Assembly: GCA_035355675.1 (NCBI GenBank)
Contig: DAOQRN010000002.1
Span: forward strand, 1,986 to 65,985
Source of the DNA: an archaeon
GTDB lineage: Archaea; Iainarchaeota; Iainarchaeia; Iainarchaeales; JAAZKV01
Direction: 5' to 3'
Length of the DNA: 64,000 nucleotides
A model generated the notes under the pieces. That model saw only the letters and a list, made by a program, of their open reading frames with translations, had not been told where the DNA came from and did no database searches. Of the stretch, positions 1 through 51,512 are shown piece after piece (position 1 is the stretch's first letter; every line of letters starts with the position of its first letter). The position numbers were made by a program, and so were the translations under genes.

Positions 1-124
1 TAATTTCGTTTGTTAATTCATCAGGGGTTGCTTCGTTGTAATTCGTTTTTTCACTTTCAGTGCAACCAAAAAAAAGCAGGGCACTTAAAATGACTATTCC
101 AATTATTGCTATTTTTGTTTTCAT

Positions 125-9610: not shown

Positions 9611-10489
9611 TTATTCATAATAAGTTGATCCATCAAAAACTTCGATATCCTTTATTGTTGTTGTTAGAGTTTTAGTGTAAGTTGTTGAAGATGTTCCAGA
9701 TTTAGAATAATCAAATGCCAAAGTTATTGTTACGTTTTGTCCAACGGATTTATTTAATTCAAATCGAGGGTTGTTTCTTGGTTGGAGTGAAAGTAAAACT
9801 TGTTCATTTGGTGCGAGAATAACTTCAGTTGAACCTAATTGTGAGTAATTTTTAAAAAACAGCACTCCTTGCCAATTTATTGTGTTGATAAGTTGGGTTT
9901 CATTAAATTTTACTGTTGTTATTTGAACATTTTCATTAAATTTATTTTTTATTATTACATTAATTGTATCATCAAGTATTTTATCTGTGGCAGTAGTATC
10001 AGAATTATTTCTTCCATAATATTTAAAATCAGTTATTTCAAGTATCCCTTCTTCAATAAGTTCACTTACTTGTACTACTTCAGTATTTATTTTAAAACTT
10101 CCAATAGGAATAATGGTTGCTTTAATTATTCCTAACAATTTTTTGTTTGTCCAACTTTCTTGCCCTTTAATATGAGTATAACTCGTTTTTCCTTTTTTAT
10201 ATCTTAAGGTTGTTCCATTTCCAGCTTTTGGAAAAATAATATCTAAACTTGTTTCTTCAGGGATTGATAAATCCATTTGATAACTTTTTCCTTCTTCAAG
10301 TCTTACTCCAAGTAATCCACTTAATGGGTCTTTTATTGTGTCTACATTGTTTTTATCAGTGCTCTCTTGTCCTGTTGTTAGCACTCCTGTTAGTGCTATT
10401 ATTACTACTGCTACGACAAGTATTGCTGCACCAATTATTAGCAAGTACTCAATTGCTCCTTGTCCTTTTTTTTCAATCATGTTGTTCAC
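9611..10489 (-). CDS. Archaeal type IV pilin-like protein (class III signal peptide, DUF361-type N-terminus) with a large glycosylated-looking extracellular domain
   Basis: The N-terminus MNNMIEKKGQ|GAIEYLLIIGAAILVVAVVIIALTG matches the PibD/FlaK substrate consensus. The body has many NxT/S sequons. Confidence 0.7.
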   Translation of the reverse strand: MNNMIEKKGQGAIEYLLIIGAAILVVAVVIIALTGVLTTGQESTDKNNVDTIKDPLSGLLGVRLEEGKSYQMDLSIPEETSLDIIFPKAGNGTTLRYKKGKTSYTHIKGQESWTNKKLLGIIKATIIPIGSFKINTEVVQVSELIEEGILEITDFKYYGRNNSDTTATDKILDDTINVIIKNKFNENVQITTVKFNETQLINTINWQGVLFFKNYSQLGSTEVILAPNEQVLLSLQPRNNPRFELNKSVGQNVTITLAFDYSKSGTSSTTYTKTLTTTIKDIEVFDGSTYYE

Positions 10490-13265: not shown

Positions 13266-14987
13266 TTATATGTATTGTTTTTTTGTTAAAAATAATCCAA
13301 AAATTATTATTGCTATTGCAGGGAGTAGTGCAAATAATATTATTTGAGGGTTTTCGATTATTGTTTTTGTAATGTCTTGGTTGTTTTCTTTTTTTGTATC
13401 TATTTTTTGAACTACAGTAGTTTCTTTTGGTTCTTCTTGTTTTTCTATGATTTGTGTTAGTGGGTAAAAGGTTTGTGTCACTTTTTCAGTTTTTGTTTCA
13501 ATAATTATTTCTTGTTTTTGTTGGTTATTTTCAATTTTTTTTCTAAAGTTTTGTTTTGTAAATGGGGATATTTTTTCAATCCAATAATAATTTTTATCAT
13601 TATTATTAACATTGATGTCGATATTGTTTTCTTTGCTGCTGTAATTTGTTGTTGTTATATCAATTAATATTTCTTTTTGAGTAGTTATTGGAGTGATGTC
13701 GTTTATGACAATTTTTTCATCATCTTTTTGATTTCCTTGGGTGATAGTTATTTCTTTTGAGTAGGGGTTTGATAAACTATTAAAAGTTATGTTTCCTTTT
13801 GCAAGTTCATTTAGTTTTAAATTTATTATTGGGTAAATTGAAAAAGTAATATTTCCTTTTTCTTTAGGGTTTAAAATAATTGATTTACTTTTGTCTTGAA
13901 TTAAAATTTCTTTGTAATTTTCTCTTATTGTTAATGGAACAATTATTTTCTTTTCAGTAAGATTTGTCACGTCTAAAATTATTTCATTCCATTGATTTGT
14001 TTTAACATCAGTATTTTTTGTTTCAATTTTTACTTCATTAAAATAATTAAAATCAATTATTTCTATTATTGGGAGGGTTTGTGTTTGAAAATTAACGCTA
14101 GTTGTTTTTGGGTACGTTGCTTTTGCAAGGGATTGAGTTATGTCTTTAAATGAACCGATTTTTATGTGTGTTCCATCTACAAATCCAATTTCTCTAAATG
14201 TTGGATCGCTTGGCACCCACCCTAAATCTTTATGGAATATTTCTATCCATGCGTGATTTCCCCATTCAATTCCATCAAAAGTGATTCCAATAATGATTCT
14301 TGTAGGAATATTTTTTGATCTTAGTATTGATGCCGCAAGGTTTGCAAATTCATCACACACTCCTTTTTTTTCAAGTAAGGTTTCTATAGCAGATTTTTGC
14401 AACAAATAATATGTTTTAAAATCATCTCCTGTTGCGTATTCAACATATTCATTTACCCAAAATATTGTTTTATTTATGGAATCTAAAAAACTTTCATTAA
14501 TTAACTTGTTTTTTGCAAGTGTAAGTATTTCTAGTGAGTTACTTTCAACTTTTTCACTATCTTTTGTAAATTCTGTTATTTTTTCATTATAATTAGATAT
14601 ATTATAATCTGTTATTTCATGAATTTGTGCACTTGTTTTTATTTTGGCAATTATTTTATAATTAAAGTCCCCGTTTTCTGTTATTGTGAATAGTGCGTAT
14701 TTATTATCAAATTCATCATAAGTGTAAATTGGTTTTATTTTATTTCCGTTTATTATTAATTCTTCATTTATTTCAAGTATTTTTTGATAGGGTGTTTCTT
14801 GAAAAGTTAGTGTTTGAAATTTAACTTCTTCTCCTTTCTCTAATTCACTTATTCTTCCATTTCCTCCCAAAGTTATTTGTAAAGTCATTTCTGAAATTGT
14901 AGTCGGATAAATATTTTGTGCATAAATCGTGGTTGTTAAAAAAATCAAAATTGTTAGTATTTTTAAAAAATTTTTTGTATGTTGCAT
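13266..14987 (-). CDS. Secreted transglutaminase-like cysteine protease-fold protein with a C-terminal membrane anchor
   Basis: Signal peptide at the N-terminus. The transglutaminase-like core carries a Cys/His/Asp triad in GVCDEF...WGNHAWIEIF...WVPSDPT. A C-terminal TM helix (ILFALLPAIAIIIFGLFL) follows. Confidence 0.7.
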   Translation of the reverse strand: MQHTKNFLKILTILIFLTTTIYAQNIYPTTISEMTLQITLGGNGRISELEKGEEVKFQTLTFQETPYQKILEINEELIINGNKIKPIYTYDEFDNKYALFTITENGDFNYKIIAKIKTSAQIHEITDYNISNYNEKITEFTKDSEKVESNSLEILTLAKNKLINESFLDSINKTIFWVNEYVEYATGDDFKTYYLLQKSAIETLLEKKGVCDEFANLAASILRSKNIPTRIIIGITFDGIEWGNHAWIEIFHKDLGWVPSDPTFREIGFVDGTHIKIGSFKDITQSLAKATYPKTTSVNFQTQTLPIIEIIDFNYFNEVKIETKNTDVKTNQWNEIILDVTNLTEKKIIVPLTIRENYKEILIQDKSKSIILNPKEKGNITFSIYPIINLKLNELAKGNITFNSLSNPYSKEITITQGNQKDDEKIVINDITPITTQKEILIDITTTNYSSKENNIDINVNNNDKNYYWIEKISPFTKQNFRKKIENNQQKQEIIIETKTEKVTQTFYPLTQIIEKQEEPKETTVVQKIDTKKENNQDITKTIIENPQIILFALLPAIAIIIFGLFLTKKQYI

Positions 14988-31344: not shown

Positions 31345-31432
31345 GGGCCCGTCTGCCAATGGATTAAGCGGCGAGACTTCGGACAATTTTGAGAGATATC
31401 TCGAGATGGGGGTTCGATTCCCTCCGGGCCCG
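31345..31432 (+). tRNA. Intron-containing tRNA, probably tRNA-Arg (anticodon UCG) with an approximately 15-nt intron at the canonical 37/38 position
   Basis: Acceptor GGGCCCG/CGGGCCC, T-arm GGGGG-TTCGATT-CCCTC, anticodon stem CGAGA/TCTCG, loop CTTCGG then the insert ACAATTTTGAGAGAT; discriminator G. The total is 88 nt. The anticodon call rests on a hand fold. Confidence 0.65.
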
Positions 31433-33306: not shown

Positions 33307-34848
33307 ATGGTTTCAATGAACTTTACAGATATTCGTTTAAAGAAGATTTCAGAATCTACTCTTTGTGAGATTTTTGAAGGAGTTTCTTATAATTTTTATG
33401 ATATAAAAAGTGCCCCATTTTCCGAACTTGAGCAAAAATTTGCAAATTTACTAATACGATTATTACAACGAAATGCTTCTTTATTAGAATTTAGTGCTTT
33501 TGATTTGCCTGATGGATTTTCAGACGCTTTTAAAGATGAAGTTATTTCTTTTGTTGAATCTAATGGATTAGTGGATAGAATTCCATCAAATAAACTTTTT
33601 ATTTCGGTTTTAGAAGTTTTGGCAAGAATTATTTCTAATATTTCTTTTATTTCAGATAAGGCAACTTTTTGTGAGTTTGTTCTTCAAAATTCTATTGGGC
33701 TTAAACAATTAGCTTTTTTTTCTTTAGATGAAGAGTTAGAAGAATTAATGGTTAATGGATTAGATAATGTTTTTGTTTTTCATAAAAAATTTGGTATGTG
33801 TAAAGTTAATGTTAGTTTTGATGAGAGAGCATTGTCTTTTTTGTTGGGGCGTATTGCTTTTTCTTCAGGAAAAAATTTTGACACTGAACATCCTTTGCTT
33901 GATACGAGATTACCTGATGGTTCAAGAGTAAATGCTTTAATGGGGTTTCTTGCAAAATCTGGTATTTCATTAACTATTAGAAAGTTTTCTCAAAATCCAA
34001 TAACAATTCTTGATTTAATTGAAAATAAAACAATTTCTTCTGATTTAGCTGCTTTTTTATGGGTTATGGTAGATGGGTATGGAACTTTTCCAAAAAATGT
34101 TTTAATTGTTGGTGGGACAGCTTCTGGAAAAACTACTTTACTCAATGTTTTAGGTAATTTTGCAAGGCTTCATGAAAGAATTGTTTCTATTGAGGATACA
34201 TTTGAAATTTCTTTACTTTCTCGTGATAATTGGGTTGCTTTAGAAGCAAAGGGAAGTCTTGATGAAGATATTTCAATGGATGTTTTGCTAAAAAATTCTT
34301 TAAGAATGCGACCTGATAGAATAATTGTTGGGGAAGTTAGAGGAAAAGAAGCATTAACTTTATTCACTGCAATGGATAATGGTCATTCAGGGTGTCTTGG
34401 AACAATTCATTCTAATAGTTCTAGAGAACTTGTAGTTAAATTACAAGAACGTCCCTTTTCAATTCCAACTACAATGATTCCTTTATTGGATTTAATTGTT
34501 GTAATGCAAAGAACTTATTCTAAGTCAACTGGGATTAAGAGAAAAGTTGTTGAAGTTTCTGAAGTTTCAAGAATGGATAATAAGGTGTTACTTGGAAATA
34601 TTTATTCTTATAATGATTCTTTTGGAGAAGTTAGGCGTACTGATATACCGATTGGGCTATTTGATATTTTATCTCAACAATTATCTATAACAAAGAATGA
34701 TTTAAAGAAAGAAATTGAAATAAGAAAATTAATTTTAGAATGGATGATTGAAAAAAAAATTAGAAAACCAAATGATGTTTTAGAATTTATACAATCCTAT
34801 TATTATCGTCCAGAAAAAGTTTTACAAATGATTAAATCAGAGGAATAA
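33307..34848 (+). CDS. Type IV pilus/archaellum-family secretion ATPase (FlaI/TadA/VirB11-like); paralog of 49830..51512
   Basis: Walker A VLIVGGTASGKTTLLN, Asp box SIEDTFE, Walker B/His box RIIVGEVRGKEALTLFTAMDNGHSGCLGTIHSNS. Confidence 0.85.
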   Translation: MVSMNFTDIRLKKISESTLCEIFEGVSYNFYDIKSAPFSELEQKFANLLIRLLQRNASLLEFSAFDLPDGFSDAFKDEVISFVESNGLVDRIPSNKLFISVLEVLARIISNISFISDKATFCEFVLQNSIGLKQLAFFSLDEELEELMVNGLDNVFVFHKKFGMCKVNVSFDERALSFLLGRIAFSSGKNFDTEHPLLDTRLPDGSRVNALMGFLAKSGISLTIRKFSQNPITILDLIENKTISSDLAAFLWVMVDGYGTFPKNVLIVGGTASGKTTLLNVLGNFARLHERIVSIEDTFEISLLSRDNWVALEAKGSLDEDISMDVLLKNSLRMRPDRIIVGEVRGKEALTLFTAMDNGHSGCLGTIHSNSSRELVVKLQERPFSIPTTMIPLLDLIVVMQRTYSKSTGIKRKVVEVSEVSRMDNKVLLGNIYSYNDSFGEVRRTDIPIGLFDILSQQLSITKNDLKKEIEIRKLILEWMIEKKIRKPNDVLEFIQSYYYRPEKVLQMIKSEE

Positions 34849-37968: not shown

Positions 37969-38328
37969 ATGATTGAAATAGTTTTATTTTTGCTAGTATT
38001 ATTATTGCTTGTAATAATTTTCTTTTTATATAAAAGAATTAATTTTTTGAATTTAGAATTAAATAATATTAATTTTTTAAAAAAGTCTCAGAGCATAAAA
38101 TATGGTCAGTTAACAGAACAGTGGATTCCATTTTCAGAAAAATTCCCTTTTTCTCCAAGTTCATTTAAATTTTTAGGGCAACCCATTGATGGTATTGTAT
38201 TTGATGATGAAAAATTAGTTTTTATTGAATTTAAAACAAATAAAAGTAAATTAAATGAGTCTCAAAAAAAAATTAAAAAACTAGTTGATGAAAAAAAAGT
38301 GGAGTGGTTAGAGTTTAGGGTTGAATAA
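37969..38328 (+). CDS. Small membrane-anchored protein with a possible PD-(D/E)xK-like nuclease signature
   Basis: 119 aa. N-terminal TM helix, then IDGIVFDDEKLVFIEFKT (D...D/E-x-K spacing). Confidence 0.3.
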   Translation: MIEIVLFLLVLLLLVIIFFLYKRINFLNLELNNINFLKKSQSIKYGQLTEQWIPFSEKFPFSPSSFKFLGQPIDGIVFDDEKLVFIEFKTNKSKLNESQKKIKKLVDEKKVEWLEFRVE

Positions 38329-41244: not shown

Positions 41245-41658
41245 TCATTTTAAAGGATTACCTTTGATAATAATGGTTTTTAGAAAATTATTATAATAAT
41301 TTTTTGTTCCAGTATTTATTAAAGTGGTACAATTTAAGTCATGTGTAATTTGATTAAGATCGTTAGTTTGAATTACTTTCCAATTATCAGTAGTGCATTT
41401 TGTTTGATTAAAAGTTTTATTAAAAATTTGATTTGCAGTGCTATTAAAATCCCTAATTATTTTTCTGTGTTCTGCATTCCAGTTATAGTACCATGCTTTT
41501 TCATTTAATGTGATTGTATAATTATTTAATTTTATTGCGTCTTCATAATAATAATTGTAAATACCATTTTCTTGTGTTTCTTGATTATTTTCAGAAATCA
41601 AAAATATGCTTATTATTGAAATTAATATTACCATAATTATGGTTGCGTATCCTTTCAT
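41245..41658 (-). CDS. Pilin-like or pilus-associated small protein with an N-terminal hydrophobic segment
   Basis: 137 aa. The N-terminus MKG|YATIIMVILISIISIFLI is class III-like. The body has many NxT/S sequons. It is first in a four-gene operon with overlapping stops and starts. Confidence 0.45.
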   Translation of the reverse strand: MKGYATIIMVILISIISIFLISENNQETQENGIYNYYYEDAIKLNNYTITLNEKAWYYNWNAEHRKIIRDFNSTANQIFNKTFNQTKCTTDNWKVIQTNDLNQITHDLNCTTLINTGTKNYYNNFLKTIIIKGNPLK

Positions 41659-41915
41659 TTTATTTCCTCACAATATTTTTTAAGATCCAAATTTCCACTA
41701 ATAAAATTAATATCCAAATAGTCTTTACAATAAGAATGATTTTCAGTTATTGTTGAGTTTTCATTTGTATAAATTGTACTACCATAATTTATATTTACCA
41801 AAGAAATATTTGAGGTTTTTGGGGGTGTATCATTATTTACTTGTAAAAATAAGAATACTAATAAGATTGAAACTACTAATAAAGCCTCAATTGTGAAAAT
41901 AAATCCTTTTTTCAT
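41655..41915 (-). CDS. Pilin-like protein (class III signal peptide)
   Basis: 86 aa, MKKG|FIFTIEALLVVSILLVFLF. Confidence 0.5.
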   Translation of the reverse strand: MKKGFIFTIEALLVVSILLVFLFLQVNNDTPPKTSNISLVNINYGSTIYTNENSTITENHSYCKDYLDINFISGNLDLKKYCEEIK

Positions 41916-42409
41916 TTTCCCACCTTTAAAATTATTTTTTCTTTAGTTAAAAAATTTTTAAAGCAATTATTATTTAAGCAATTTGTAAGATCCATGTTAA
42001 TATAATCTGTACTTTTTTCACAAGTCATTATTTCTGTTTCAATAGCAAAAATATTTTTTTTATCAATTAGTTGTGGGGTATAATTTTTATTATTTACAAT
42101 AAGTTCTAAATCATAATTTAATAATCCAATTTCTTCTTTAATATTAGTTTTTTGTAATAATTTTCTTTTATCAATAGTGTTTTTTAGAGTTGTTCCATTT
42201 AGTTCACAATTGTATTGTGTGTTTGCAAGTAATATCATTAATGAACTATTTAAAGAATCTTCCATGTTTTTTTTCTCAATATATTCTTTAGTGTTATAAT
42301 TGTTTAGTTCGCTTGTTTGAATTATCATTCCAATTATTAGAATTACTAAAATCATGGACATTAAAAAATCTAATGAAAATATTTGTCCTTTTGGATTTAT
42401 TTTAAACAT
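41912..42409 (-). CDS. Pilin-like protein (class III signal peptide)
   Basis: 165 aa, MFKINPKGQ|IFSLDFLMSMILVILIIG. Confidence 0.55.
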   Translation of the reverse strand: MFKINPKGQIFSLDFLMSMILVILIIGMIIQTSELNNYNTKEYIEKKNMEDSLNSSLMILLANTQYNCELNGTTLKNTIDKRKLLQKTNIKEEIGLLNYDLELIVNNKNYTPQLIDKKNIFAIETEIMTCEKSTDYINMDLTNCLNNNCFKNFLTKEKIILKVGK

Positions 42410-42797
42410 TTCTTATCACCATATCATTTTCGATTTTTTCAATTATTAAATTTTTTGGAATTTTTGAAGAGTGTGTGCTTTTTATATTTTTTCCAGTTAA
42501 ATTTTCACTAATTTCAAAAGTATTTTCATCGATAATTGTAAAATTTGGAGTGAATGTTGTATTTTTATAAATTACTTTTCTTAAAGTTATTTTTGAATAA
42601 AAATTTGTGTCACTTAAAGTTTGAGCAGTGTTTATTAATAAACTAATTTCATTACCTTGTTCTTTTAATTGATTTTGTAAAAAAATATCTTCTTGAGTTT
42701 CTTTGATATCATTCCCAATTAGGGATAAACCACTTAATGCAACAAATATTGCAAGGATAGTTATTAATAAATCAAGGCTTATTTGTCCATTTTTCAT
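42402..42797 (-). CDS. Pilin-like protein (class III signal peptide)
   Basis: 131 aa, MKNGQ|ISLDLLITILAIFVALSG. Confidence 0.55.
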   Translation of the reverse strand: MKNGQISLDLLITILAIFVALSGLSLIGNDIKETQEDIFLQNQLKEQGNEISLLINTAQTLSDTNFYSKITLRKVIYKNTTFTPNFTIIDENTFEISENLTGKNIKSTHSSKIPKNLIIEKIENDMVIRNV

Positions 42798-42851
42798 GTT
42801 TATTTATTAGTTTTTTATATTTTTAATTGTGTCTTTTTTGTTTTTTATTTA

Positions 42852-43271
42852 TTATTCAATTAAAACTATTTTAATTTCTTCCCCTTTTTCATTATAAAAT
42901 TTTATGTTTTCTAATTTAAAACTATTATCAATTATTCCATTTATGGAGTAATTTTGAAAAAATTTTTTATCTTCTTTACTTGGGTGATTTTCTCCTAAGG
43001 GGTGGGAGTGGATTGTTCCAACAATTTTATTGTCAAACGGAATTATTAAAGAATTTATTTCTACAAATGTTTCTCCTGCAATATTTGGTAAATATACAAT
43101 TTGATCAATTATTTCATTATTTTTTGATAAAAAAATTAACATTTCTTTTGGAAAATTATTTTTTGCAGAATTGCAAATTTCTTGAAGTAGTTGTTTTTTT
43201 ATTTTAAACATAATTATATTAGTATGAATAAGTAAAAAAATAGAGTGGGTATAATTAGCGAGTTCATACAT
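42852..43271 (-). CDS. JAB/MPN (JAMM) domain metalloprotease; the likely start is the internal Met at about 43211
   Basis: Full JAMM motif: an upstream Glu (FPKEMLIFL), then H-S-H-P-L-G-E-N-H-P-S-K-E-D, i.e. HxHx7Sx2D. Confidence 0.7.
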   Translation of the reverse strand: MYELANYTHSIFLLIHTNIIMFKIKKQLLQEICNSAKNNFPKEMLIFLSKNNEIIDQIVYLPNIAGETFVEINSLIIPFDNKIVGTIHSHPLGENHPSKEDKKFFQNYSINGIIDNSFKLENIKFYNEKGEEIKIVLIE

Positions 43272-44374
43272 AGACTTCTTTTAACTTTTTTACTTATTGT
43301 AAATAATCCAAGGCTTGTTGAAAAAATAAGGGTTATTATTCCAAGAATTCCACCAGTTATTATTGTTGCAAAAATCATGATTAAAAGACTGATTATGTTT
43401 AATTTTCTAGTTAAATTTTCATTAAAAAAGTTTATCATTATTTTTGATAATTGGATTGTTGCAAATCCCCCAATTCCTGCAGAAATTACCATTATTATAA
43501 TTCCAAGAATCATTGTTTCTTGGGTTAATGTAATTTTATCTTGTAGAAAAATCATTGCCCCGTTTCTTGTTTTTTTTAATGCGAATAGAGTAATAAATCC
43601 AAAGAAAAAATTTGCTGTATTTATGCTTCCAAGCATTGTTAAGTAGTTTTTTTCTTGAATTTTTAGTTTAAAAGTTTTAATTATTGTTGCTGCAGTGTTA
43701 CTTCCAATACCTGGGATTATTGCAACAATTGTTCCCCCAATTAGTCCCAGTATTGGATCAGTTATTTTATTTTCAATATTTATTTCAGTATTTTGTTTTT
43801 TTATTATATTTTTTTCTTTTAATGAATACAATGTTGCGCTTACTCCAAAATATCCTGTAATTAGTGCAAATATTTGTCCACTAAATATCAATCCTTGTGT
43901 TGTTGCAATAAAGATTATAAAAATTGATATTATTTTTTTCCTAAAAGATTTTTCTTGTTGTATCATTATTATGGGGGTTAGGAGTAATATTATTGGAGTA
44001 ATTAAAATTATTTCTCTTTGATTTTGTTCAAGTAATAAAAATATTATTGGGGTTATTAGAACTCCCACAATTGTTGCTATTATTCCTCCAAATACTGTTA
44101 GAGTTATTGCGTTAATTCCTTCGCCTTGAATTAACATTTTGTGGGCGGGTAATACTCCTTCAAATGTTGTGGTTGAGGGCACCCCTAAAAATGTTGATGG
44201 GATAAATTCCACAAAGGTTTGAACTATTGACATACTTAGGACCAAAACCATTATTTCTTTTCCAAAAATTGGGCTTATTGCGATTAAAGCGATTATTGTG
44301 TTTGTGTGTAGGCCTGGGGTTAATCCAGCAATTATTCCAAATATTGATCCAAGGATTAGGTAAAAAATAATCAT
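43214..44374 (-). CDS. TctA-like (DUF112) polytopic membrane protein
   Basis: 386 aa with about 10 TM helices and two repeat halves carrying the motifs GLTPGLHTNT and IPGIGSNTAATI (TctA-type G-x-PG). Confidence 0.5.
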   Translation of the reverse strand: MIIFYLILGSIFGIIAGLTPGLHTNTIIALIAISPIFGKEIMVLVLSMSIVQTFVEFIPSTFLGVPSTTTFEGVLPAHKMLIQGEGINAITLTVFGGIIATIVGVLITPIIFLLLEQNQREIILITPIILLLTPIIMIQQEKSFRKKIISIFIIFIATTQGLIFSGQIFALITGYFGVSATLYSLKEKNIIKKQNTEINIENKITDPILGLIGGTIVAIIPGIGSNTAATIIKTFKLKIQEKNYLTMLGSINTANFFFGFITLFALKKTRNGAMIFLQDKITLTQETMILGIIIMVISAGIGGFATIQLSKIMINFFNENLTRKLNIISLLIMIFATIITGGILGIITLIFSTSLGLFTISKKVKRSLCMNSLIIPTLFFYLFILI

Positions 44375-44700
44375 ATTTCTTTTATCACCTTGTATGCATA
44401 AAAGTTATTTTCTTTTTCTTTTTCGACATAGGCTGTGATAAAATCATTTTTTTGGATAGTAGTTTCTTTGGGGTAGTAGATTGTGGCTTTACTTCCATCA
44501 TTAAGAATTAGTATTGTTGAGGGGAAGTTTTTTACTACATATTCTACTTTTCCACTTATTATTCCTTTTGTAATTTTTTCATTATTAATTAATTCTTGGA
44601 TTGTTATTTTTTCAAATTCTTCTTTATAGAAAACTAAAAATCCAATAAATCCTATTAAAATAATTATCAAACAAATTTGTGAAATTTGTGTGTCGTTCAT
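44371..44700 (-). CDS. Small membrane-anchored protein, function unknown
   Basis: 109 aa with an N-terminal TM helix. It overlaps the upstream gene by 4 nt. Confidence 0.35.
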   Translation of the reverse strand: MNDTQISQICLIIILIGFIGFLVFYKEEFEKITIQELINNEKITKGIISGKVEYVVKNFPSTILILNDGSKATIYYPKETTIQKNDFITAYVEKEKENNFYAYKVIKEI

Positions 44701-44789
44701 ATTTTTTTGTTTTTTTAAAAGAATATAAACCCCAGTATTTTTTCGTTATTTGTCGTATTATTTTTGTGGGTTAAGTGTTGATTGTTTTT

Positions 44790-45146
44790 TTAAATTTTTC
44801 TTATTGTTATATTGAGTTGGACATTGTTAAGTTTTAAGTTTTCAACCATTTTTTGTTTAAATTTTGTTAAAAATTCAACGTTGTTTATTATTTTATTAGT
44901 TTCAATTGGGTCTTCAGTTAATATAACTAAATTTATTTTATTTAGGTTATTACTTTTTTCCAAAGTGATGCTTTCAATATAACTTGTAGAAGTTGTTTCA
45001 TTTAGTTTTTCAATAAATTCATTTTTTGTAAATATTATCAGGTTTGTATTTTCGGTTGTTTGAAAATAGAGGGATGTAATATAAATTGAAGCACTTAATA
45101 CAATAAGTGAAATAAATAATAATTCAAATGTTACTTGTCCTTTCAC
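44790..45146 (-). CDS. Pilin-like protein (class III signal peptide)
   Basis: 118 aa, MKGQ|VTFELLFISLIVLSASIYI. Confidence 0.55.
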   Translation of the reverse strand: MKGQVTFELLFISLIVLSASIYITSLYFQTTENTNLIIFTKNEFIEKLNETTSTSYIESITLEKSNNLNKINLVILTEDPIETNKIINNVEFLTKFKQKMVENLKLNNVQLNITIRKI

Positions 45147-45160
45147 TTAAATCATCCTTT

Positions 45161-45601
45161 TTAATTTATTATTATGTTGTTATCAATTTTTTGTAAAATT
45201 ATTGTTTGATTTTGAGTTAGTTCATTTTTTAGACATTTAAGGTCAGGGTTAACAAAATAGTTTTTGTCACATATGTCATTTGGACAATTTTTTGTTTCTG
45301 GATTATTTTTATTTTCATTTATTTTCACACTAAAACCAATATTTCCATCATTATAACAATATATTTTTCCATTTTCGGGTATTCTCAAAATTATTGTTTC
45401 TTTTGATCCATTACTAAAATTATTTAATCTGTTAATTCCTTGCATAATTTTCATACACTCATTATCTGTTTGTGTTAAATTTCTTATATCTGTTACTGAA
45501 GATTGAGCACTTTTTATCATGGGGTAGGTTACTGAAACAATATAAGTTATTATTAGCACAATTATTATTAGAAATTCTATTGAGGTTTGTCCTTTTTTCA
45601 T
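45161..45601 (-). CDS. Pilin-like protein (class III signal peptide)
   Basis: 146 aa, MKKGQ|TSIEFLIIIVLIITYIV. The body is Cys/Asn-rich. Confidence 0.55.
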   Translation of the reverse strand: MKKGQTSIEFLIIIVLIITYIVSVTYPMIKSAQSSVTDIRNLTQTDNECMKIMQGINRLNNFSNGSKETIILRIPENGKIYCYNDGNIGFSVKINENKNNPETKNCPNDICDKNYFVNPDLKCLKNELTQNQTIILQKIDNNIIIN

Positions 45602-45605
45602 TTTT

Positions 45606-46685
45606 TCACCAAATTAGTATCCAAGCGTCACCAATGATTAAACAAAGTAAATACCCTATTAGCATTGTAGGAACAAAGGGCATTGATTCTTTTATTTTTA
45701 TGGTTTCGCCTATTTTTTTATTTTTGTATAATTTTTTAAGTAATTTTATTTCTTCTTCATTGAGGCCCCTAGCTTTAGTTGCAGAAATGATTTCATTTTT
45801 TTTTGAAAAAATTTCATTAATTTTATTTTCTTTTACAAGTTTTATTATTTGTTTAATTGAAAAATTTTGTTCTTTTACTTGATTTTTTTCAAAATATAAT
45901 GTTTTTGATGGTATCATTCCTTCTTTTAATTTACTAATTTTTACTGTTGTTTGAAGAACGGGTCCAAGGGATAACATTAGTTTTATTGTTCCATAAATAA
46001 ATATTATAAATATAAAACTTGTTAAGGTATTTTGTAAGGTTTGAAGCGGCAATATAATTAACCCAATAATAGAAATTAAAATTGTGATTATAATTTTTCC
46101 TTTTTTTAAAATTCCTATTAGTATTAATGTGGGAAGTATAATTAGTGATGGGATTTGTAGAAAATAAAAAATTGTTGATAATCCTCCAATTAGTATTGAT
46201 AAAATTATTCCATCAATTACTCTTTTTTTAGCGTCTTTTATTAAATTATTTCTTGCTTCTTTATTATTTTTTAATTTTAATAAAATAACAAGCATTGCAT
46301 ATGGTAAAAATCCAATTAGAGAATAAATAAATAAGGTTATTGCAAAGATTTGAAAATTAGAGTTTGTAAATTCTCCTATTTTTAATATTGCGGGCGTGAA
46401 TGGATTTAGTGCCCCTAGTGCCATGAATAATTTAACATCTCCTCCAGCAAATACTCCTATTTTCCAAAGAATCCATCCAAAAGTAAACCCTATTATTAAT
46501 CCAAGTAATGAAAATATTATTGGTAGTGGGGTTTGTTCGAAATAAGATTGAATTAAATAAATAATTAACCCAATTATTGCTAAAGAAAAGTTTAATTTGT
46601 TTGAAACAATTCTTTCTTTTAAATCAGTGTATGTTGCTATTAGTAATCCTATTATTGAAATAATTATTGTTAAGTAAAAATACAT
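45606..46685 (-). CDS. Prepilin peptidase (A24-family aspartic protease, PibD/FlaK/TadV-like) with a C-terminal extension
   Basis: Polytopic membrane protein with the first catalytic Asp in YTDLKERIVS and the second in FAGGDVKLFMALGA. Confidence 0.75.
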   Translation of the reverse strand: MYFYLTIIISIIGLLIATYTDLKERIVSNKLNFSLAIIGLIIYLIQSYFEQTPLPIIFSLLGLIIGFTFGWILWKIGVFAGGDVKLFMALGALNPFTPAILKIGEFTNSNFQIFAITLFIYSLIGFLPYAMLVILLKLKNNKEARNNLIKDAKKRVIDGIILSILIGGLSTIFYFLQIPSLIILPTLILIGILKKGKIIITILISIIGLIILPLQTLQNTLTSFIFIIFIYGTIKLMLSLGPVLQTTVKISKLKEGMIPSKTLYFEKNQVKEQNFSIKQIIKLVKENKINEIFSKKNEIISATKARGLNEEEIKLLKKLYKNKKIGETIKIKESMPFVPTMLIGYLLCLIIGDAWILIW

Positions 46686-46744
46686 TGTTTATCAGAAGTT
46701 TAATGGATTTTCTTGATTAAAATACTTTTTGTTTAATTATTTTT

Positions 46745-46924
46745 TTATTTTTGCATTATTTGTTCTATTGTTTGGGTTCTTATTGTTAGTATTTCTGCTT
46801 GTGCTTCAAGTGCAAGTTGTCTTAGTGTTTCAACAATTAATGCAGTGCTTATTGCAAGTGAAATAACAAAAACAGCGGTCAGTAAATATTCAAAACTTAC
46901 TTGTGCTTTTTCTTCTTGTAACAT
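46745..46924 (-). CDS. Small Flp-like pilin (59 aa), not in the ORF track
   Basis: Manual translation: MLQEEKAQ|VSFEYLLTAVFVISLAISTALIVETLRQLALEAQAEILTIRTQTIEQIMQK. The N-terminus is class III, similar to the QGAIEYLL pilins. Coordinates are +/-1. Confidence 0.5.
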   Translation of the reverse strand: MLQEEKAQVSFEYLLTAVFVISLAISTALIVETLRQLALEAQAEILTIRTQTIEQIMQK

Positions 46925-46928
46925 TTTT

Positions 46929-47276
46929 TCACTCCCATTTTAGTAATGGATCATTTTCATATTTTGGATCAAGTTTTCCTGGACAAATGCTGTTTGATTT
47001 TTTTGCAAAAACAAATTCTCCACTTGAAAGCATTTCTCCTCTATCAGATTTTTTTAAATAACATCCACACAATAGACTGTTTGTGTCAAGCCCGCCTTTT
47101 GATTTTGGTCCACAAAGGTAATCATAAGTGTTTCTATTTCCTGAATCAATTGTTGGTCCTAGTACTCCTGTCATATATGATACTACTACTGCGATTACAA
47201 TAATTGCAGCTCCTAATAATAACAAGTATTCTATTGCTCCCTGTCCTTTTTTTTCAAAAAAATTCATTCTAATCAC
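46929..47276 (-). CDS. Type IV pilin (DUF361-type class III signal peptide)
   Basis: MIRMNFFEKKGQ|GAIEYLLLLGAAIIVIAVVVSYMTGVLG, followed by a Cys-containing globular domain. Confidence 0.7.
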   Translation of the reverse strand: MIRMNFFEKKGQGAIEYLLLLGAAIIVIAVVVSYMTGVLGPTIDSGNRNTYDYLCGPKSKGGLDTNSLLCGCYLKKSDRGEMLSSGEFVFAKKSNSICPGKLDPKYENDPLLKWE

Positions 47277-47334
47277 TATTATGTAAATGTTTTTTTAGTA
47301 TTTAAAGTTAAGTAGTTTGATTAAAAAAGAAGTT

Positions 47335-47357
47335 GAAAAGGCATTTTTTGCCTTTTC
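47335..47357 (-). terminator. Perfect 9-bp hairpin GAAAAGGCA-TTTTT-TGCCTTTTC immediately downstream of the 72-aa pilin gene, followed by a T-run on the transcribed strand
   Basis: The inverted repeat is seen directly. On the minus strand it is followed by CAACTTCTTTTTT. Confidence 0.45.
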
Positions 47358-47376
47358 AAAAAATTAAATGTTTTAA

Positions 47377-47595
47377 TTATGGTTCTTCTGTTGGTGCTAC
47401 ATACCCTGGACATCCTTCTACTGTGTTGTCTCTTAGGCAGTTTAGATCATTCATTTCATTATTATAGTCACCTGTACTTACATCATCTTGTGAACTAAGT
47501 ACTCCTGTTAGTGCTACTATTACAACAGCAACTACAAGTATTGCAGCTCCAATTATTAGTAAGTATTCTATTGCTCCTTGTGCTCTTTCTTCCAT
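47377..47595 (-). CDS. Short type IV pilin (72 aa); candidate major pilin
   Basis: MEERAQ|GAIEYLLIIGAAILVVAVVIVALTGVLSS, with a very short C-terminal domain (two Cys) and a strong downstream terminator hairpin. Confidence 0.7.
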   Translation of the reverse strand: MEERAQGAIEYLLIIGAAILVVAVVIVALTGVLSSQDDVSTGDYNNEMNDLNCLRDNTVEGCPGYVAPTEEP

Positions 47596-47649
47596 TGTTT
47601 TCCCTCCATTTTTAGTAAAAATAACTTATCTTATAAGGTTTTTCTCATT

Positions 47650-47797
47650 TTTAAGGGTTTTGTTTTTGTTGTGTTTGGGTAGTTTCACTAATTGTGCTTG
47701 CAGTATTTTTCATAAATAAAGCAACTGCGGTTGCAATTACAACAACAAATAATAATCCTAAAATTACTTCAAATTGTGCTTGTGCTCTTTCTTCCAT
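47650..47797 (-). pseudogene. Pilin paralog with an apparent frameshift in an A5 homopolymer
   Basis: The ATG sits directly after the TadC-like stop. Frame 1 reads MEERAQAQFEVIF then junk to a stop. Frame -1 after the A-run would read ...LGLLFVVVIATAVALFMKNTASTISETTQTQQKQNP, a complete pilin. Confidence 0.4.
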
Positions 47798-48715
47798 CTA
47801 CATTGCCCCCATTAAAAATATTTTTAGTATAATTACTGATATATAATATACAATAAAAGCTGTTAATAATAGTATTGGGATGTAGATTATTGCTTTGTTA
47901 GGTTTTCCATCACGTATTAGTGCCATTATTGTTCCGCTTCCAATAACTTCAATTATTAAGTATCCTTGAGTGATTATTAGAATAAGATCACTGTTTGTTT
48001 TTGTTTGTATTGCTTGTGCGGCATTAATTTGGGTACTTAGCACTGTTGAAAACATTCCCATTATTGCAGTGATTTCTCCAAATATTATTGGTGCAATTAT
48101 TCCTCCTGCAGCTATCATAAATAAAAATTGCATTTGGGTGTTAGATTTTCTTTCTTCTTTTAATTTGTGCATGTCTCTTACATCTTCTGAAATGTCATCA
48201 AGTACTTCTGCAAGACTTGCTCCGGTTTTTATTGAATCAAGAATTATTGTTATTGTTCTCCGCACTAACTTTGAGTCAATTCTTTCAGAAAATCCTCTAA
48301 GCGAACTATCAATATTTGTTCCTTCTTCAAGTCTTCTTAAACTAATTTCCATTTCTTCAGATAGTCTTCCATAATCTGCATTTGCTACTTCTCTTAATGC
48401 ACTTTCATAAGTATCTCCTGCTTTAAGTGTGTCAGCCATTTGTTTTAGTGCATCACTAAAGTTTGATTCAATTGAATCAATTATTGTTTCTTTTTTCATG
48501 TAGGGATAACCCAAACTTAGAACGAGTGTTGCAATTGCAAATGCTATTGGCAATAAATTTGCCTCTTTAATAAAAAAGGAACTTATAATTAATACTAAAA
48601 TGAATATTATGATTGTTGAAATTAAGGATAAAGTTATCCATTTTTTTGCATCATATTGTAGTCGGCAAAACTTTAATATGATTTCATAATCTTCAATCAA
48701 TTTTTTTATTTCCAT
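47798..48715 (-). CDS. TadC/FlaJ-like pilus assembly membrane protein (T2SS-F domain)
   Basis: 305 aa with an N-terminal cytoplasmic domain then TM helices. The cytoplasmic GDTYESALREVANADYGRLSEEMEISLRRLEEGTNIDSSLRGF matches the T2SSF/TadC pattern. Confidence 0.7.
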   Translation of the reverse strand: MEIKKLIEDYEIILKFCRLQYDAKKWITLSLISTIIIFILVLIISSFFIKEANLLPIAFAIATLVLSLGYPYMKKETIIDSIESNFSDALKQMADTLKAGDTYESALREVANADYGRLSEEMEISLRRLEEGTNIDSSLRGFSERIDSKLVRRTITIILDSIKTGASLAEVLDDISEDVRDMHKLKEERKSNTQMQFLFMIAAGGIIAPIIFGEITAIMGMFSTVLSTQINAAQAIQTKTNSDLILIITQGYLIIEVIGSGTIMALIRDGKPNKAIIYIPILLLTAFIVYYISVIILKIFLMGAM

Positions 48716-48732
48716 TTTTTATCACTACTTTT

Positions 48733-49833
48733 TTATATTTGTGGTTGCATTTTGTATACCATATAATTCATAAATATAAAAATCATTGGCATTATTATAA
48801 AATAAATTATTAACAAAACATCTATTGTTAGGGGAACTGATTTGAATAATTCTTTACCTGTTGTTGCAAGCGGGGAGTTTCTTATTGATCCAAGAATTAA
48901 TATTGATACTGGTAAAATTATTCCTAAAAATATAAAAATGACTGCAAAAAAATTCATGCTTTGTGAGAAAGAACTTATTTTATTTTTTAAATCATTTGTA
49001 ACATCTTTTGCAATATCATTCATTACTTCTGAAAGGTTTCCTCCAATTCTCATAGCTCTTAATATGTGGTTTATTGTTGTTTTTAGTGGTCTTAACTGGG
49101 TTCTTAGAGATAAGTGTTTTAAAGCAATATTTGTGTCAGTTCCTTCTTCTATTTCATTAATTGTTTTTGAAAATTCTTCACTTAGTACTCCATAATCATT
49201 TGAAGCAATCGCTTGCATTGCTTTGTAAAGTCCAATTCCTGATTTTAATTCAGTTGCCATATGTCTTAAAGCAAAAGGGAGTTCTGTTGAACATAAATTT
49301 CCTCTTTCTATTGCTTTACTTTTTGGTAATTGTATTATTATTATTGTGGAAATTAAAGTTCCAAATACCCCAAATATTGGGGGTAATAAGGCAATGAGTG
49401 CAAGATTTCTAGTAAAAATTGAAATTAATAATCCAATAATTACTGAAAACAATCCTATTACTAGTCCTGCTGTTGTTGATAGTGCTAAGTATTGATTTGC
49501 TGAGTATTGCATATTTGCTGAGTATAAATAAAATCCTAGTTCTTGTGTCATTGGAAAATTTTTAAAATAATTTTGTAAAGGTTTTATTACATTTTTTATT
49601 TTTAAGTAGAGTGATCCTATTTGTTTTGTTAGGTCTGAACCAAATTCTTCTACGTCTTCTTGTGTATCAATATCAATTTTTGCATAAGTGTCTTCTGCAA
49701 TGATTCCTCTCATTTCTTTAAGGCTAGTATTTACTTCATCAATTACGAGTCCCTCTTCTCGGTATTTTTTTTTCATTGTTTCAACTATTTTAGTAACTTC
49801 GTTTTCATCTATTGATAAGGTTTCACTACTCAT
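48733..49833 (-). CDS. TadB/FlaJ-like pilus assembly membrane protein (T2SS-F domain)
   Basis: 366 aa. GIGLYKAMQAIASNDYGVLSEEFSKTINEIEEGTDTNIALKHL matches the T2SSF cytoplasmic domain and TM helices flank it. Confidence 0.7.
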   Translation of the reverse strand: MSSETLSIDENEVTKIVETMKKKYREEGLVIDEVNTSLKEMRGIIAEDTYAKIDIDTQEDVEEFGSDLTKQIGSLYLKIKNVIKPLQNYFKNFPMTQELGFYLYSANMQYSANQYLALSTTAGLVIGLFSVIIGLLISIFTRNLALIALLPPIFGVFGTLISTIIIIQLPKSKAIERGNLCSTELPFALRHMATELKSGIGLYKAMQAIASNDYGVLSEEFSKTINEIEEGTDTNIALKHLSLRTQLRPLKTTINHILRAMRIGGNLSEVMNDIAKDVTNDLKNKISSFSQSMNFFAVIFIFLGIILPVSILILGSIRNSPLATTGKELFKSVPLTIDVLLIIYFIIMPMIFIFMNYMVYKMQPQI

Positions 49834-51512
49834 TGTGTGTCACCAATTTTTCTTCTTTGTTCTAAAAATAATTTTGCTTCTTTTGAAACTTGTTTTATTT
49901 CTCTAGTATTTTTTTCTAAAAGTTTTTCTAAAAATTGTTTTCTTATTTCAATTTCTGCATATATTTGTTCTCTTGATAGTCCTGTAAAGTTTTGTAAATT
50001 TTTTAAGTATTGGCTTTCAAGTATTGTTCGTTCGATTCTATCTTTTGCAGGGTCTCTTTGGAATATTGTTTGTGTTTTTGGTTTTCCATCGAGTGCGCCA
50101 TATATTTCTGCGATTTCAGTTATTCTTCTTATAGTTCCTTTTTTTCTATCATAATATCTGTGTTCAACAATAATTATGTCTAGTCCTGATAACATTACTT
50201 CTGGAACATTCATTGGGGGTGTTGTTACTCTTATGATTGTTTCTTGTGGACTATTTGCGTGTACTGTTCCTAAACATCCATCGTGTCCTGTGTTTATTGC
50301 AGTGAATAAAGTGAATGCTTCTTCATGTCTTATTTCTCCAACAATTATTCTATCGGGTCTCATTCTTAAAGAATTTTTTGTTAAAATATCTAATTTTAGT
50401 TCTCCTGTTCCTTCTATTCCTGGAGGTCTTGCTTCAAGTCTTATCCAATGGTTTGTTGGAATATTTATTTCAGCAGTGTCTTCGATTGTGATTATTCTTT
50501 CTCTGTCTGGAATTAATGCTGCAAGTACATTTAGTAGTGTTGTTTTTCCTGACCCTGTTCCTCCCGCAATTAACATATTTGCTGGTTTTGTATTCATTCC
50601 TTCTACACATAACCAAAGGAATGCAGCCACTTCGCTTGAAACAGTATTCATTTTTATTAAGTCAATTATTGAATATGGGTCTTCTCTAAATTTTCTAATA
50701 GTTAGTGTTCCTCCACTTATACTTGCTGGGGGAATTGTTGCATTTACTCTTGAACCATCAGTCAATCTTGCATCAAGTAATGGTGAAGATACATCAACTC
50801 TTCTTCCAATTTCTCTTGCAATTCTATTAATTAGATCTTCAATTTCTTGTTCTGAAAAAAATTCAATATTTGTTTGCATCATTTCATAGTCTCTGTGAAA
50901 TACAAAAACTGGTTTTTTCGCACCAATTATCATTATTTCTTCTAAATTATCATCTTTAATTAATTCATCGATTAATCCATACCCTACCATTTCTCTAACA
51001 ACAGCTTCTGCATAGAATAGTGTTTTACTTTCTGGAATTCTTAAACTTGGGTTGTTTTGAATTATTTCTATTACTTTTTGTTTGTAAATTATTCTTTTTT
51101 CTTCTTGGTTCCTTATTTTATATGGAGCAATACTAACGAGTCTTGTTGTCGCTTCTTTTATTGTGTTAATTATTTTTCTTTCAATTGCAGTTGGTCTTAT
51201 TGTTGGGACGTAATAGTAGTTTAGTGGTTTTCCTGGAATTTTATATATTTTTACTTTCCCATAACTTGATAGTTCAATTTTTTTTTCTTGTTCAAGTTCT
51301 TTTTCAAATTCATTTTGTTCTGATGATGGTTCAATAACTATGTCCCCTTCAATTTTTTTCATTTCTTCTTTTGTTACTGTTTTTGCCAGTTCTTCTTCTT
51401 TTTCTTCAGGTTTATTTTGTATTAGCGTATCAATTTTTTGTTCAGTGTTTGTTGTTTCTTTTTTTGCTTCTTTCATTAATTCAGCAAGATAGTCTGTAGT
51501 CATTTTAATCAC
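49830..51512 (-). CDS. Type IV pilus assembly ATPase (FlaI/TadA/VirB11 family)
   Basis: Walker A MLIAGGTGSGKTTLLN, Asp box TIEDTAE, Walker B/His box RIIVGEIRHEEAFTLFTAINTGHDGCLGTVHANS. It overlaps the TadB-like gene by 4 nt. Confidence 0.9.
   Translation of the reverse strand: MIKMTTDYLAELMKEAKKETTNTEQKIDTLIQNKPEEKEEELAKTVTKEEMKKIEGDIVIEPSSEQNEFEKELEQEKKIELSSYGKVKIYKIPGKPLNYYYVPTIRPTAIERKIINTIKEATTRLVSIAPYKIRNQEEKRIIYKQKVIEIIQNNPSLRIPESKTLFYAEAVVREMVGYGLIDELIKDDNLEEIMIIGAKKPVFVFHRDYEMMQTNIEFFSEQEIEDLINRIAREIGRRVDVSSPLLDARLTDGSRVNATIPPASISGGTLTIRKFREDPYSIIDLIKMNTVSSEVAAFLWLCVEGMNTKPANMLIAGGTGSGKTTLLNVLAALIPDRERIITIEDTAEINIPTNHWIRLEARPPGIEGTGELKLDILTKNSLRMRPDRIIVGEIRHEEAFTLFTAINTGHDGCLGTVHANSPQETIIRVTTPPMNVPEVMLSGLDIIIVEHRYYDRKKGTIRRITEIAEIYGALDGKPKTQTIFQRDPAKDRIERTILESQYLKNLQNFTGLSREQIYAEIEIRKQFLEKLLEKNTREIKQVSKEAKLFLEQRRKIGDTQ

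Follow-up and report, generated by a model that had tools for sequence, protein, structure and literature searches.

Genes at the locus

The 64,000-nucleotide stretch of archaeal DNA analysed here, hereafter called the window (contig DAOQRN010000002.1 of assembly GCA_035355675.1, positions 1,986 to 65,985), carries a type IV pilus cluster which includes a small gene for a metallopeptidase of the MPN+/JAMM type, hereafter called JAMM. It is the last gene of a probable unit of three, preceded by the genes of a predicted membrane-anchored OB-fold protein and of a TctA-like membrane protein, and all genes in its vicinity are on the minus strand. The unit may be a pilus-linked DNA-uptake module, to which JAMM is tentatively assigned as an accessory peptidase. 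In transcription order, the three genes are:

44371..44700 (-): 109-amino-acid protein with one N-terminal transmembrane helix and an OB-fold barrel, according to an AlphaFold2 (AF2) model and Foldseek
43214..44374 (-): TctA-like (DUF112) polytopic membrane protein of 386 amino acids (Pfam PF01970, E 3.8e-31, profile positions 1-422 of 423)
42852..43211 (-): AfJAMM-type MPN+/JAMM metallopeptidase gene, 119 amino acids, the coordinates including the stop codon TAA at 42854..42852

Identity of the JAMM protein

The longest open reading frame (ORF) at the JAMM locus, 42852..43271 (-), corresponds to 139 amino acids. The translation start is, however, almost certainly the second in-frame ATG, 43211..43209, from which the product begins MFKIKK, because the homologs are 118-124 amino acids long and have the N-terminus MWKIKK, because the 20 additional codons would run into the 3' end of the TctA-like gene (stop codon 43216..43214), and because the NCBI record of the identical protein, HNV01001.1, is the 119-amino-acid form. 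The 139-amino-acid gene model was rejected on these grounds. The NCBI record bears the name 'Mov34/MPN/PAD-1 family protein', and the family assignment is already in public annotation.

The catalytic motif consists of E23 and H68-S-H70-x7-S78-x2-D81 in the numbering of the 119-amino-acid form, and its residues are invariant in all of the context-labelled homologs (25/25). The protein matches the Pfam family Prok-JAB (PF14464) with 30.9 bits (gathering cut-off 25, E 2.7e-7), and a phmmer search of the PDB aligned it over residues 2-119 with AfJAMM (AF2198; E 5.5e-18), which was also found with the family profile (E 3e-24). The AF2 model of JAMM (pLDDT 82.6, pTM 0.79) was matched by Foldseek to 1oi0, the structure of AF2198, with TMq 0.82, TMt 0.90 and E 2.4e-10, followed by PfJAMM1 (5ld9/5lda, TM score approximately 0.7) and then by Rpn11 and CSN5. 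Neither a signal peptide nor a transmembrane segment is present in JAMM. From its motif and its modelled fold, JAMM is predicted to be a catalytically intact, soluble, cytoplasmic Zn-dependent peptidase or isopeptidase of the AfJAMM family. An earlier note on this DNA, made from the letters and an ORF list, had recognized a complete JAMM signature in a standalone protein and had proposed profile searches to place it in the JAB/MPN superfamily. Signature and placement both hold, with a modelled MPN fold in addition, as does the estimated size of roughly 120 amino acids, whereas the extent of 42852-43271 which it gave for the gene is that of the overlong reading frame.

The AfJAMM-like family is small, an exhaustive HMMER search with E values up to 1e-3 having returned 390 clusters at 50 % identity. 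Prok-JAB was the sole domain found in the longer members, in which no fusion partner was seen. Several of them (P0162, P0205, P0209, P0221, P0273 and the protein encoded in locus L017 at 9701..10366 (+)), one of which is from a Promethearchaeota MAG (metagenome-assembled genome), have an N-terminal extension of approximately 100 amino acids with no Pfam match.

Partner proteins

For the TctA-like protein 113 homologs were found, mainly in metagenome-assembled genomes (MAGs) labelled as DPANN, and the nearest methanogen protein recovered, from Methanobacterium, has 26 % identity with that of the window. No TctB or TctC genes are among the neighbours of the TctA-like gene in the window.

The 109-amino-acid protein encoded upstream, whose OB fold had been overlooked in the earlier note, has no significant Pfam match of its own, and a PDB search with the profile of its family gave only noise (legumain, E 0.3). 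The basis of the OB assignment is therefore threefold: the AF2 model (pLDDT 74), in which a helix at residues 3-29 is followed by five strands, the Foldseek matches of this model (CcmE, RPA14/32, IF1 and the OB domain of LysRS), and the Pfam matches of its positional counterparts, PF01336 being found with E 1e-14 in the distant locus L023 and weakly in L041. The protein as modelled is a membrane-anchored OB fold.

Gene junctions and promoter-like elements

The genes encoding the OB-fold and TctA-like proteins overlap by 4 nucleotides (ATGA), and 2 nucleotides separate the TctA-like stop codon from the JAMM ATG in the window (2-4 nucleotides in the related loci L001, L018 and L019). Three promoter-like elements were located, two of them in the 89-nucleotide spacer 5' of the OB gene and one in the 54-nucleotide spacer 3' of the JAMM stop codon:

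44742..44755 (-): imperfect palindrome CGNC-N5-ACGAA (TTCGNC..GNCGAA type), 5' of the OB gene, a candidate transcription-factor site
44723..44729 (-): TATA-like box TTTATAT, 29 nucleotides before the OB ATG, a candidate promoter for all three genes
42816..42826 (-): TTAAAAATATA box, 29 nucleotides from the ATG that follows, a candidate promoter for the pilin-like genes downstream

The exact palindrome pattern occurs once in the 64-kb window, where approximately 0.04 occurrences of an equivalent pattern would be expected by chance, and a search of the window for a regulon returned only this exact site, matches with one mismatch being at chance level. It was found as a single match in each of 16 loci containing the spacer and as one overlapping match on both strands in L033. 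The loci bearing it are L001, L002, L005, L008, L018, L019, L024-L026, L031, L033-L037, L039 and L041, and its position is always just 5' of the OB gene, even in the distant locus L041 and at a TctA-like identity of only approximately 28 %. Outside the palindrome and the TATA-like box, the spacer has diverged among the loci.

A T-rich box lies at a fixed distance from the OB gene in 11 aligned loci, and in the spacer after JAMM a TTAAAA box is found, at about equal distance, in the majority of the 13 related loci aligned. Since the genome is AT-rich (GC content of the window 27.9 %), the TATA-like boxes are suggestive only and would be unconvincing alone, whereas the CG-containing palindrome, which is probably a transcription-factor site, is convincing. 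The tight junctions, the palindrome and TATA-like box in front and the second promoter-like box after JAMM suggest that the OB, TctA-like and JAMM genes form a discrete transcription unit with its own, probably regulated, promoter.

The surrounding pilus genes

The unit is flanked on both sides by pilus or pilin-like genes, as follows:

44790..51512 (-): core type IV pilus genes, from the ORF list and profile searches
49830..51512 (-): FlaI-like ATPase
48733..49833 and 47798..48715 (-): two FlaJ/TadC-like platform genes
47651..47797, 47377..47595, 46929..47276 and 46745..46924 (-): four small pilins with class III signal peptides
45606..46685 (-): A24 prepilin peptidase, 2.4 kb upstream of JAMM
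45161..45601 and 44790..45146 (-): two pilin-like genes
41245..42797 (-): four consecutive pilin-like genes (131, 165, 86 and 137 amino acids) with class-III-signal-like N-termini of the form K/R-G-Q/F/Y

The assignment of the four downstream genes is a direct reading of their N-termini, the proteins having no Pfam matches. In the direction of transcription, the ATPase gene is followed by the two platform genes, the four small pilins, the A24 peptidase, the two pilin-like genes, the OB gene, the TctA-like gene, JAMM, the four pilin-like genes, ABCE1 and Pelota, and JAMM lies inside the type IV pilus cluster. An archaellum was considered and rejected, the ATPase scoring 292 bits against the cut-off of 550 for the FlaI equivalog, and genes for archaellin and FlaF/G/H not being seen.

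Some further genes of the window bear on the pilus genes or lie close to them. The gene at 37969..38328 (+), approximately 3 kb past the end of the pilus cluster and approximately 4.5 kb from the JAMM stop codon, encodes a protein of 119 amino acids with an N-terminal transmembrane helix and a match to PF10107 (endonuclease related to archaeal Holliday junction resolvase, E 1e-17); the gene keeps its syntenic place in L001, L019 and L039, and its product could be relevant to the processing of incoming DNA. At 33307..34848 (+), some 6 kb past the pilus cluster, there is a second secretion ATPase gene of the T2SSE/FlaI-like type (PF00437, E 8e-33), which is conserved also in L001 and was seen in part in L018. 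A protein of 292 amino acids, encoded at 9611..10489 (-) and so at a distance from the main cluster, has a class III signal; its N-terminus, KKGQGAIEYLLIIGAAILVVAVV, hardly differs from those of the small pilins at 46929..47595, and it looks like a large pilin or adhesin.

Conservation of gene order

The position of JAMM in the pilus cluster is conserved in approximately 20 related loci, in which the JAMM identity ranges from 63 to 39 %. The NCBI labels of the relatives include 'archaeon', 'Candidatus Diapherotrites' and 'Candidatus ainarchaeum', which places the window in a DPANN-type lineage. Where the contigs are long enough, the order OB-TctA-JAMM was present in 15 out of 15 metagenome loci found with JAMM as the query, and it is likewise kept in the loci reached through the TctA-like protein (approximately 50-70 % identity). 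A scan of a genome collection with the C-terminal pattern of JAMM returned 10 loci, which were useful only for outgroup contexts.

The adjacency of the TctA-like and JAMM genes is kept with three different genes downstream. In the clade of the window these are the pilin-like genes; in L039 and L040 the four pilin-like genes are missing and ABCE1 comes immediately after OB-TctA-JAMM; and in L042 the TctA-JAMM pair is followed by the gene for phosphoglycerate mutase (iPGM). The L042 TctA-like protein has 29 % identity with that of the window, and its JAMM is on a separate branch in a rough neighbour-joining tree. The persistence of the pair across these rearrangements is more informative than its position, since within the clade the flanks are wholly syntenic.

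The TctA-like gene is also found near pilus genes elsewhere. In L041 the A24 peptidase gene, two pilin-like genes and the OB and TctA genes lie together with the palindrome, and in L021 (Methanobacterium formicicum AMPO01000005.1, 638..13293) the TctA-like gene is 1-3 kb from the pilus genes T2SSE and T2SSF, which is a second, independent case of TctA-like/pilus proximity, in a methanogen. JAMM is not a recurrent component of archaeal type IV pili among the loci examined, being found in a pilus cluster only in this DPANN clade, and it would appear to be a lineage-restricted addition to the OB/TctA module rather than a universal part of it.

Comparison with known systems

AfJAMM (AF2198) of Archaeoglobus fulgidus (PDB 1oi0, 1r5x) is equal in length to the JAMM of the window and aligns with it over the full length with 33 % identity. 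The two share the E...HSHx7SxxD zinc site and a minimal MPN fold without insertions of the Ins-1/Ins-2 type. They differ in their gene neighbours, which in Archaeoglobi are an aconitase-family gene and a TrkA_C/PhoU gene instead of TctA-like and pilus genes. The JAMM zinc site was defined with AfJAMM in 2003, when it was stated of its biology that 'nothing is known' and no substrate was found; ubiquitin derivatives were not cleaved, and the protein was inactive on the substrates tried (PMC300881).

The desampylases PfJAMM1 (5ld9/5lda) and HvJAMM1 have the fold and the catalytic motif in common with the window JAMM, but their sequence identity with it is only 17-20 %, and it scored 17.4 bits against the cut-off of 130 for the NCBIfam desampylase family NF041370. 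SAMP-like and E1-like genes were not seen in the 64-kb window, in which there is also no candidate for a ubiquitin-like (Ubl) modifier, that is, no ORF of at least 45 amino acids ending in GG(x0-5).

RadC is a bacterial JAB-domain protein associated with competence regulons. It shares with the window JAMM the JAB fold and a genetic link to DNA-uptake machinery, but differs in its bacterial origin and in an N-terminal helix-hairpin-helix (HhH) region which JAMM lacks. The RadC scores of JAMM were below the cut-offs (15.2 bits against 22.1 for PF04002, 17.7 against 133.85 for TIGR00608).

To our knowledge, archaea do not have ComEC. The bacterial ComEA/ComEC system would follow a logic like that suggested for the window, in which an extracytoplasmic nucleic-acid binder and a polytopic channel are combined with a type IV pilus, but its HhH and ComEC/Rec2 folds are not homologous to the OB and TctA-like folds. 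According to a genetic study of Methanococcus, the pair of an OB-fold and a TctA-like protein is the only candidate for archaeal DNA translocation (PMC10133366). As given there, a single-transmembrane OB-fold protein (MMJJ_13020), a TctA-like protein (MMJJ_13030) and a type IV-like pilus are all essential if M. maripaludis is to undergo natural transformation, a TctA homolog is essential also in Methanoculleus thermophilus, and the TctA homolog is proposed by the authors to be the missing archaeal DNA transporter (PMC10133366). Compared by architecture only, the pair in the window matches that of M. maripaludis in having an OB gene directly upstream of an archaeal TctA-like permease gene, in lacking TctB and TctC and in its link with a type IV-like pilus; it differs in being embedded in a pilus cluster and in having JAMM as a third gene. 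By this analogy the OB/TctA-like pair of the window appears to be the counterpart of the M. maripaludis transformation pair.

JAB and TctA both go unmentioned in a survey of archaeal type IV pilus loci (PMC4858521). Searches of the available literature found no paper linking JAB with TctA/DUF112 or with archaeal pili, the search for DPANN with TctA gave a primer sequence as its sole match, and that for RadC with competence gave nothing relevant. In these searches we could not find a description of an OB/TctA-like/JAMM unit placed in a pilus cluster and preceded by a conserved palindrome, which would be a variant of the archaeal OB/TctA module.

Proposed role of JAMM and alternatives

The tentatively favoured reading, which is close to an even call, is that JAMM may serve, in the cytoplasm, as an accessory peptidase to a candidate module for pilus-linked DNA uptake, consisting of the OB, TctA-like and JAMM proteins, in a DPANN-type clade. 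The pilus would bring nucleic acid to the cell surface, where the extracytoplasmic OB domain would bind it after pilus action and the TctA-like protein would carry it across the membrane. JAMM, co-expressed with the pair, would be an auxiliary hydrolase on the cytoplasmic side of the membrane. Its task might be to trim a protein component or cargo linked to protein, or to set it free, to remove protein from the cargo, or to degrade a subunit of the channel in the course of its turnover.

Several observations weigh against this reading, and most of them suit the alternative of a general cytosolic enzyme, an isopeptidase or peptidase which is desampylase-like or serves protein turnover and stands here only because the genome is compact and its gene order inherited. 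Synteny in the clade is just as strong in the flanks, which extend from ThrRS to Elp3/TYW3 and include the housekeeping genes ABCE1 and Pelota, and since this whole region is syntenic the conserved position of JAMM is in itself weak evidence. In these compact genomes, short gaps or overlaps also join JAMM to unrelated genes, such as ABCE1 in L039 and the aconitase gene in Archaeoglobi. The two can occur apart: in L041 JAMM is approximately 6 kb from OB-TctA and adjoins a histidine phosphatase gene, the OB/TctA pairs of L020 and L023 (TctA-like identity 26-34 %) have no JAMM nearby, and neither do the TctA-like genes of L021 and L022, that of L022 standing alone. Elsewhere the neighbours of the family members are unrelated. 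The AfJAMM orthologs of Archaeoglobi are not flanked by TctA-like or pilus genes, the Methanolobus ortholog adjoins DUF92 and histidine kinase genes without TctA-JAMM adjacency, and in a Promethearchaeota MAG an AfJAMM-like gene is fused to an unassigned N-terminal region, again without TctA adjacency. In L043 and L044 (5496..8845) an AfJAMM-like gene with a 20-amino-acid N-terminal extension lies near a Lon_C protease gene and, at a distance of two genes, upstream of one for a Cdc48-type AAA ATPase, a context which may point to a function of this branch in proteostasis. Furthermore, the terms 'JAB', 'MPN' and 'metalloprotease' are absent from the M. maripaludis paper, and there is no JAMM among the gene-list entries excerpted from it (PMC10133366). 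The second-best structural match of JAMM being a desampylase, followed by Rpn11 and CSN5, also agrees with a housekeeping function. On the other hand, such a hitch-hiking gene would not be expected to stay next to the TctA-like gene through three rearrangements of the downstream neighbour and down to 29 % TctA-like identity, nor to be bracketed together with it by conserved promoter-like elements, and a desampylase role is further countered by the missing Ubl-like ORF with a GG end in the window, by the low NF041370 score and by the failure of AfJAMM to cleave ubiquitin derivatives (PMC300881). The housekeeping explanation is a serious rival, although a somewhat improbable one.

That JAMM processes pilins or removes a modifier attached to them, as the earlier note had proposed, is very improbable. 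The surroundings described in that note were correct, with the TctA-like gene directly upstream and four class-III-signal-like proteins directly downstream, and pilin-like genes are conserved on both flanks of JAMM in the clade. The cluster has, however, a dedicated A24 prepilin peptidase, JAMM is soluble without a secretion signal, and the neighbour which it keeps is the TctA-like gene, also in loci that lack the pilin-like genes downstream; JAMM appears not to be the prepilin signal peptidase. No modifier gene was found in the window, the ThiS/MoaD-like small protein with a C-terminal GG for which the note had suggested looking being absent from these 64 kb. The further remark that a JAMM enzyme is not a standard pilus component was borne out, both by its restriction to this clade and by the survey of archaeal type IV pilus loci, in which no JAB component is named (PMC4858521). 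Its conservation in related pilus loci, which the note had left to be checked, was seen in every related locus recovered. Because the JAB/MPN placement holds and the place in the pilus cluster is conserved, JAMM is neither a protein from outside that superfamily nor a random insertion.

A RadC-like role, in which JAMM would have as its substrate nucleic acid entering the cell, or proteins bound to DNA, at the point where the uptake channel opens into the cytoplasm, is quite improbable. It is suggested by weak profile similarity (Pfam RadC E 0.02, TIGR00608 E 0.002, and 2qlc with E 0.12 using the family profile), by the co-location of JAMM with a candidate DNA-uptake pair and by the membrane-anchored nuclease-like gene past the pilus cluster, which is syntenic in relatives. 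Against it, all RadC scores are under the curated cut-offs, the closest relatives of JAMM are peptidase-type JAMMs, JAMM has no HhH or other DNA-binding domain, and the biochemical function of RadC is itself unsettled.

A bolder form of the favoured DNA-uptake reading, which is unlikely, would make JAMM an integral cytoplasmic subunit of an undescribed nucleic-acid import machine, composed of the type IV pilus, the OB receptor and the TctA-like channel under an operator-controlled promoter and used by nucleotide-auxotrophic DPANN archaea for DNA uptake. The task of JAMM would then be to gate the channel, to recycle it or to free the incoming cargo of protein, and the founding structure of the JAMM family would gain its first physiological context. 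Were JAMM merely a co-located housekeeping gene, the finding would shrink to a correctly annotated gene of the Mov34/MPN family.

The conserved three-gene unit offers the first specific candidate partners for the orphan proteases of the AfJAMM type, and the conserved palindrome provides a handle on the regulation of the unit. The embedding of an OB/TctA pair in a pilus cluster is independent support, from genomic context, for an uptake pathway from pilus to OB-fold protein to TctA-like protein, and for DPANN archaea, with their reduced metabolism, a mode of life that includes the uptake of nucleic acids is plausible.

Other features of the window

Two features apart from the pilus cluster were noted. 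At 31345..31432 (+) an 88-nucleotide tRNA was identified with Rfam (41.3 bits) and was not reported by ARAGORN; an intron or a long variable arm is possible. The gene at 13266..14987 (-) encodes a protein of 573 amino acids with a signal-peptide-like N-terminus and a transglutaminase-like core (PF01841, E 5e-18).

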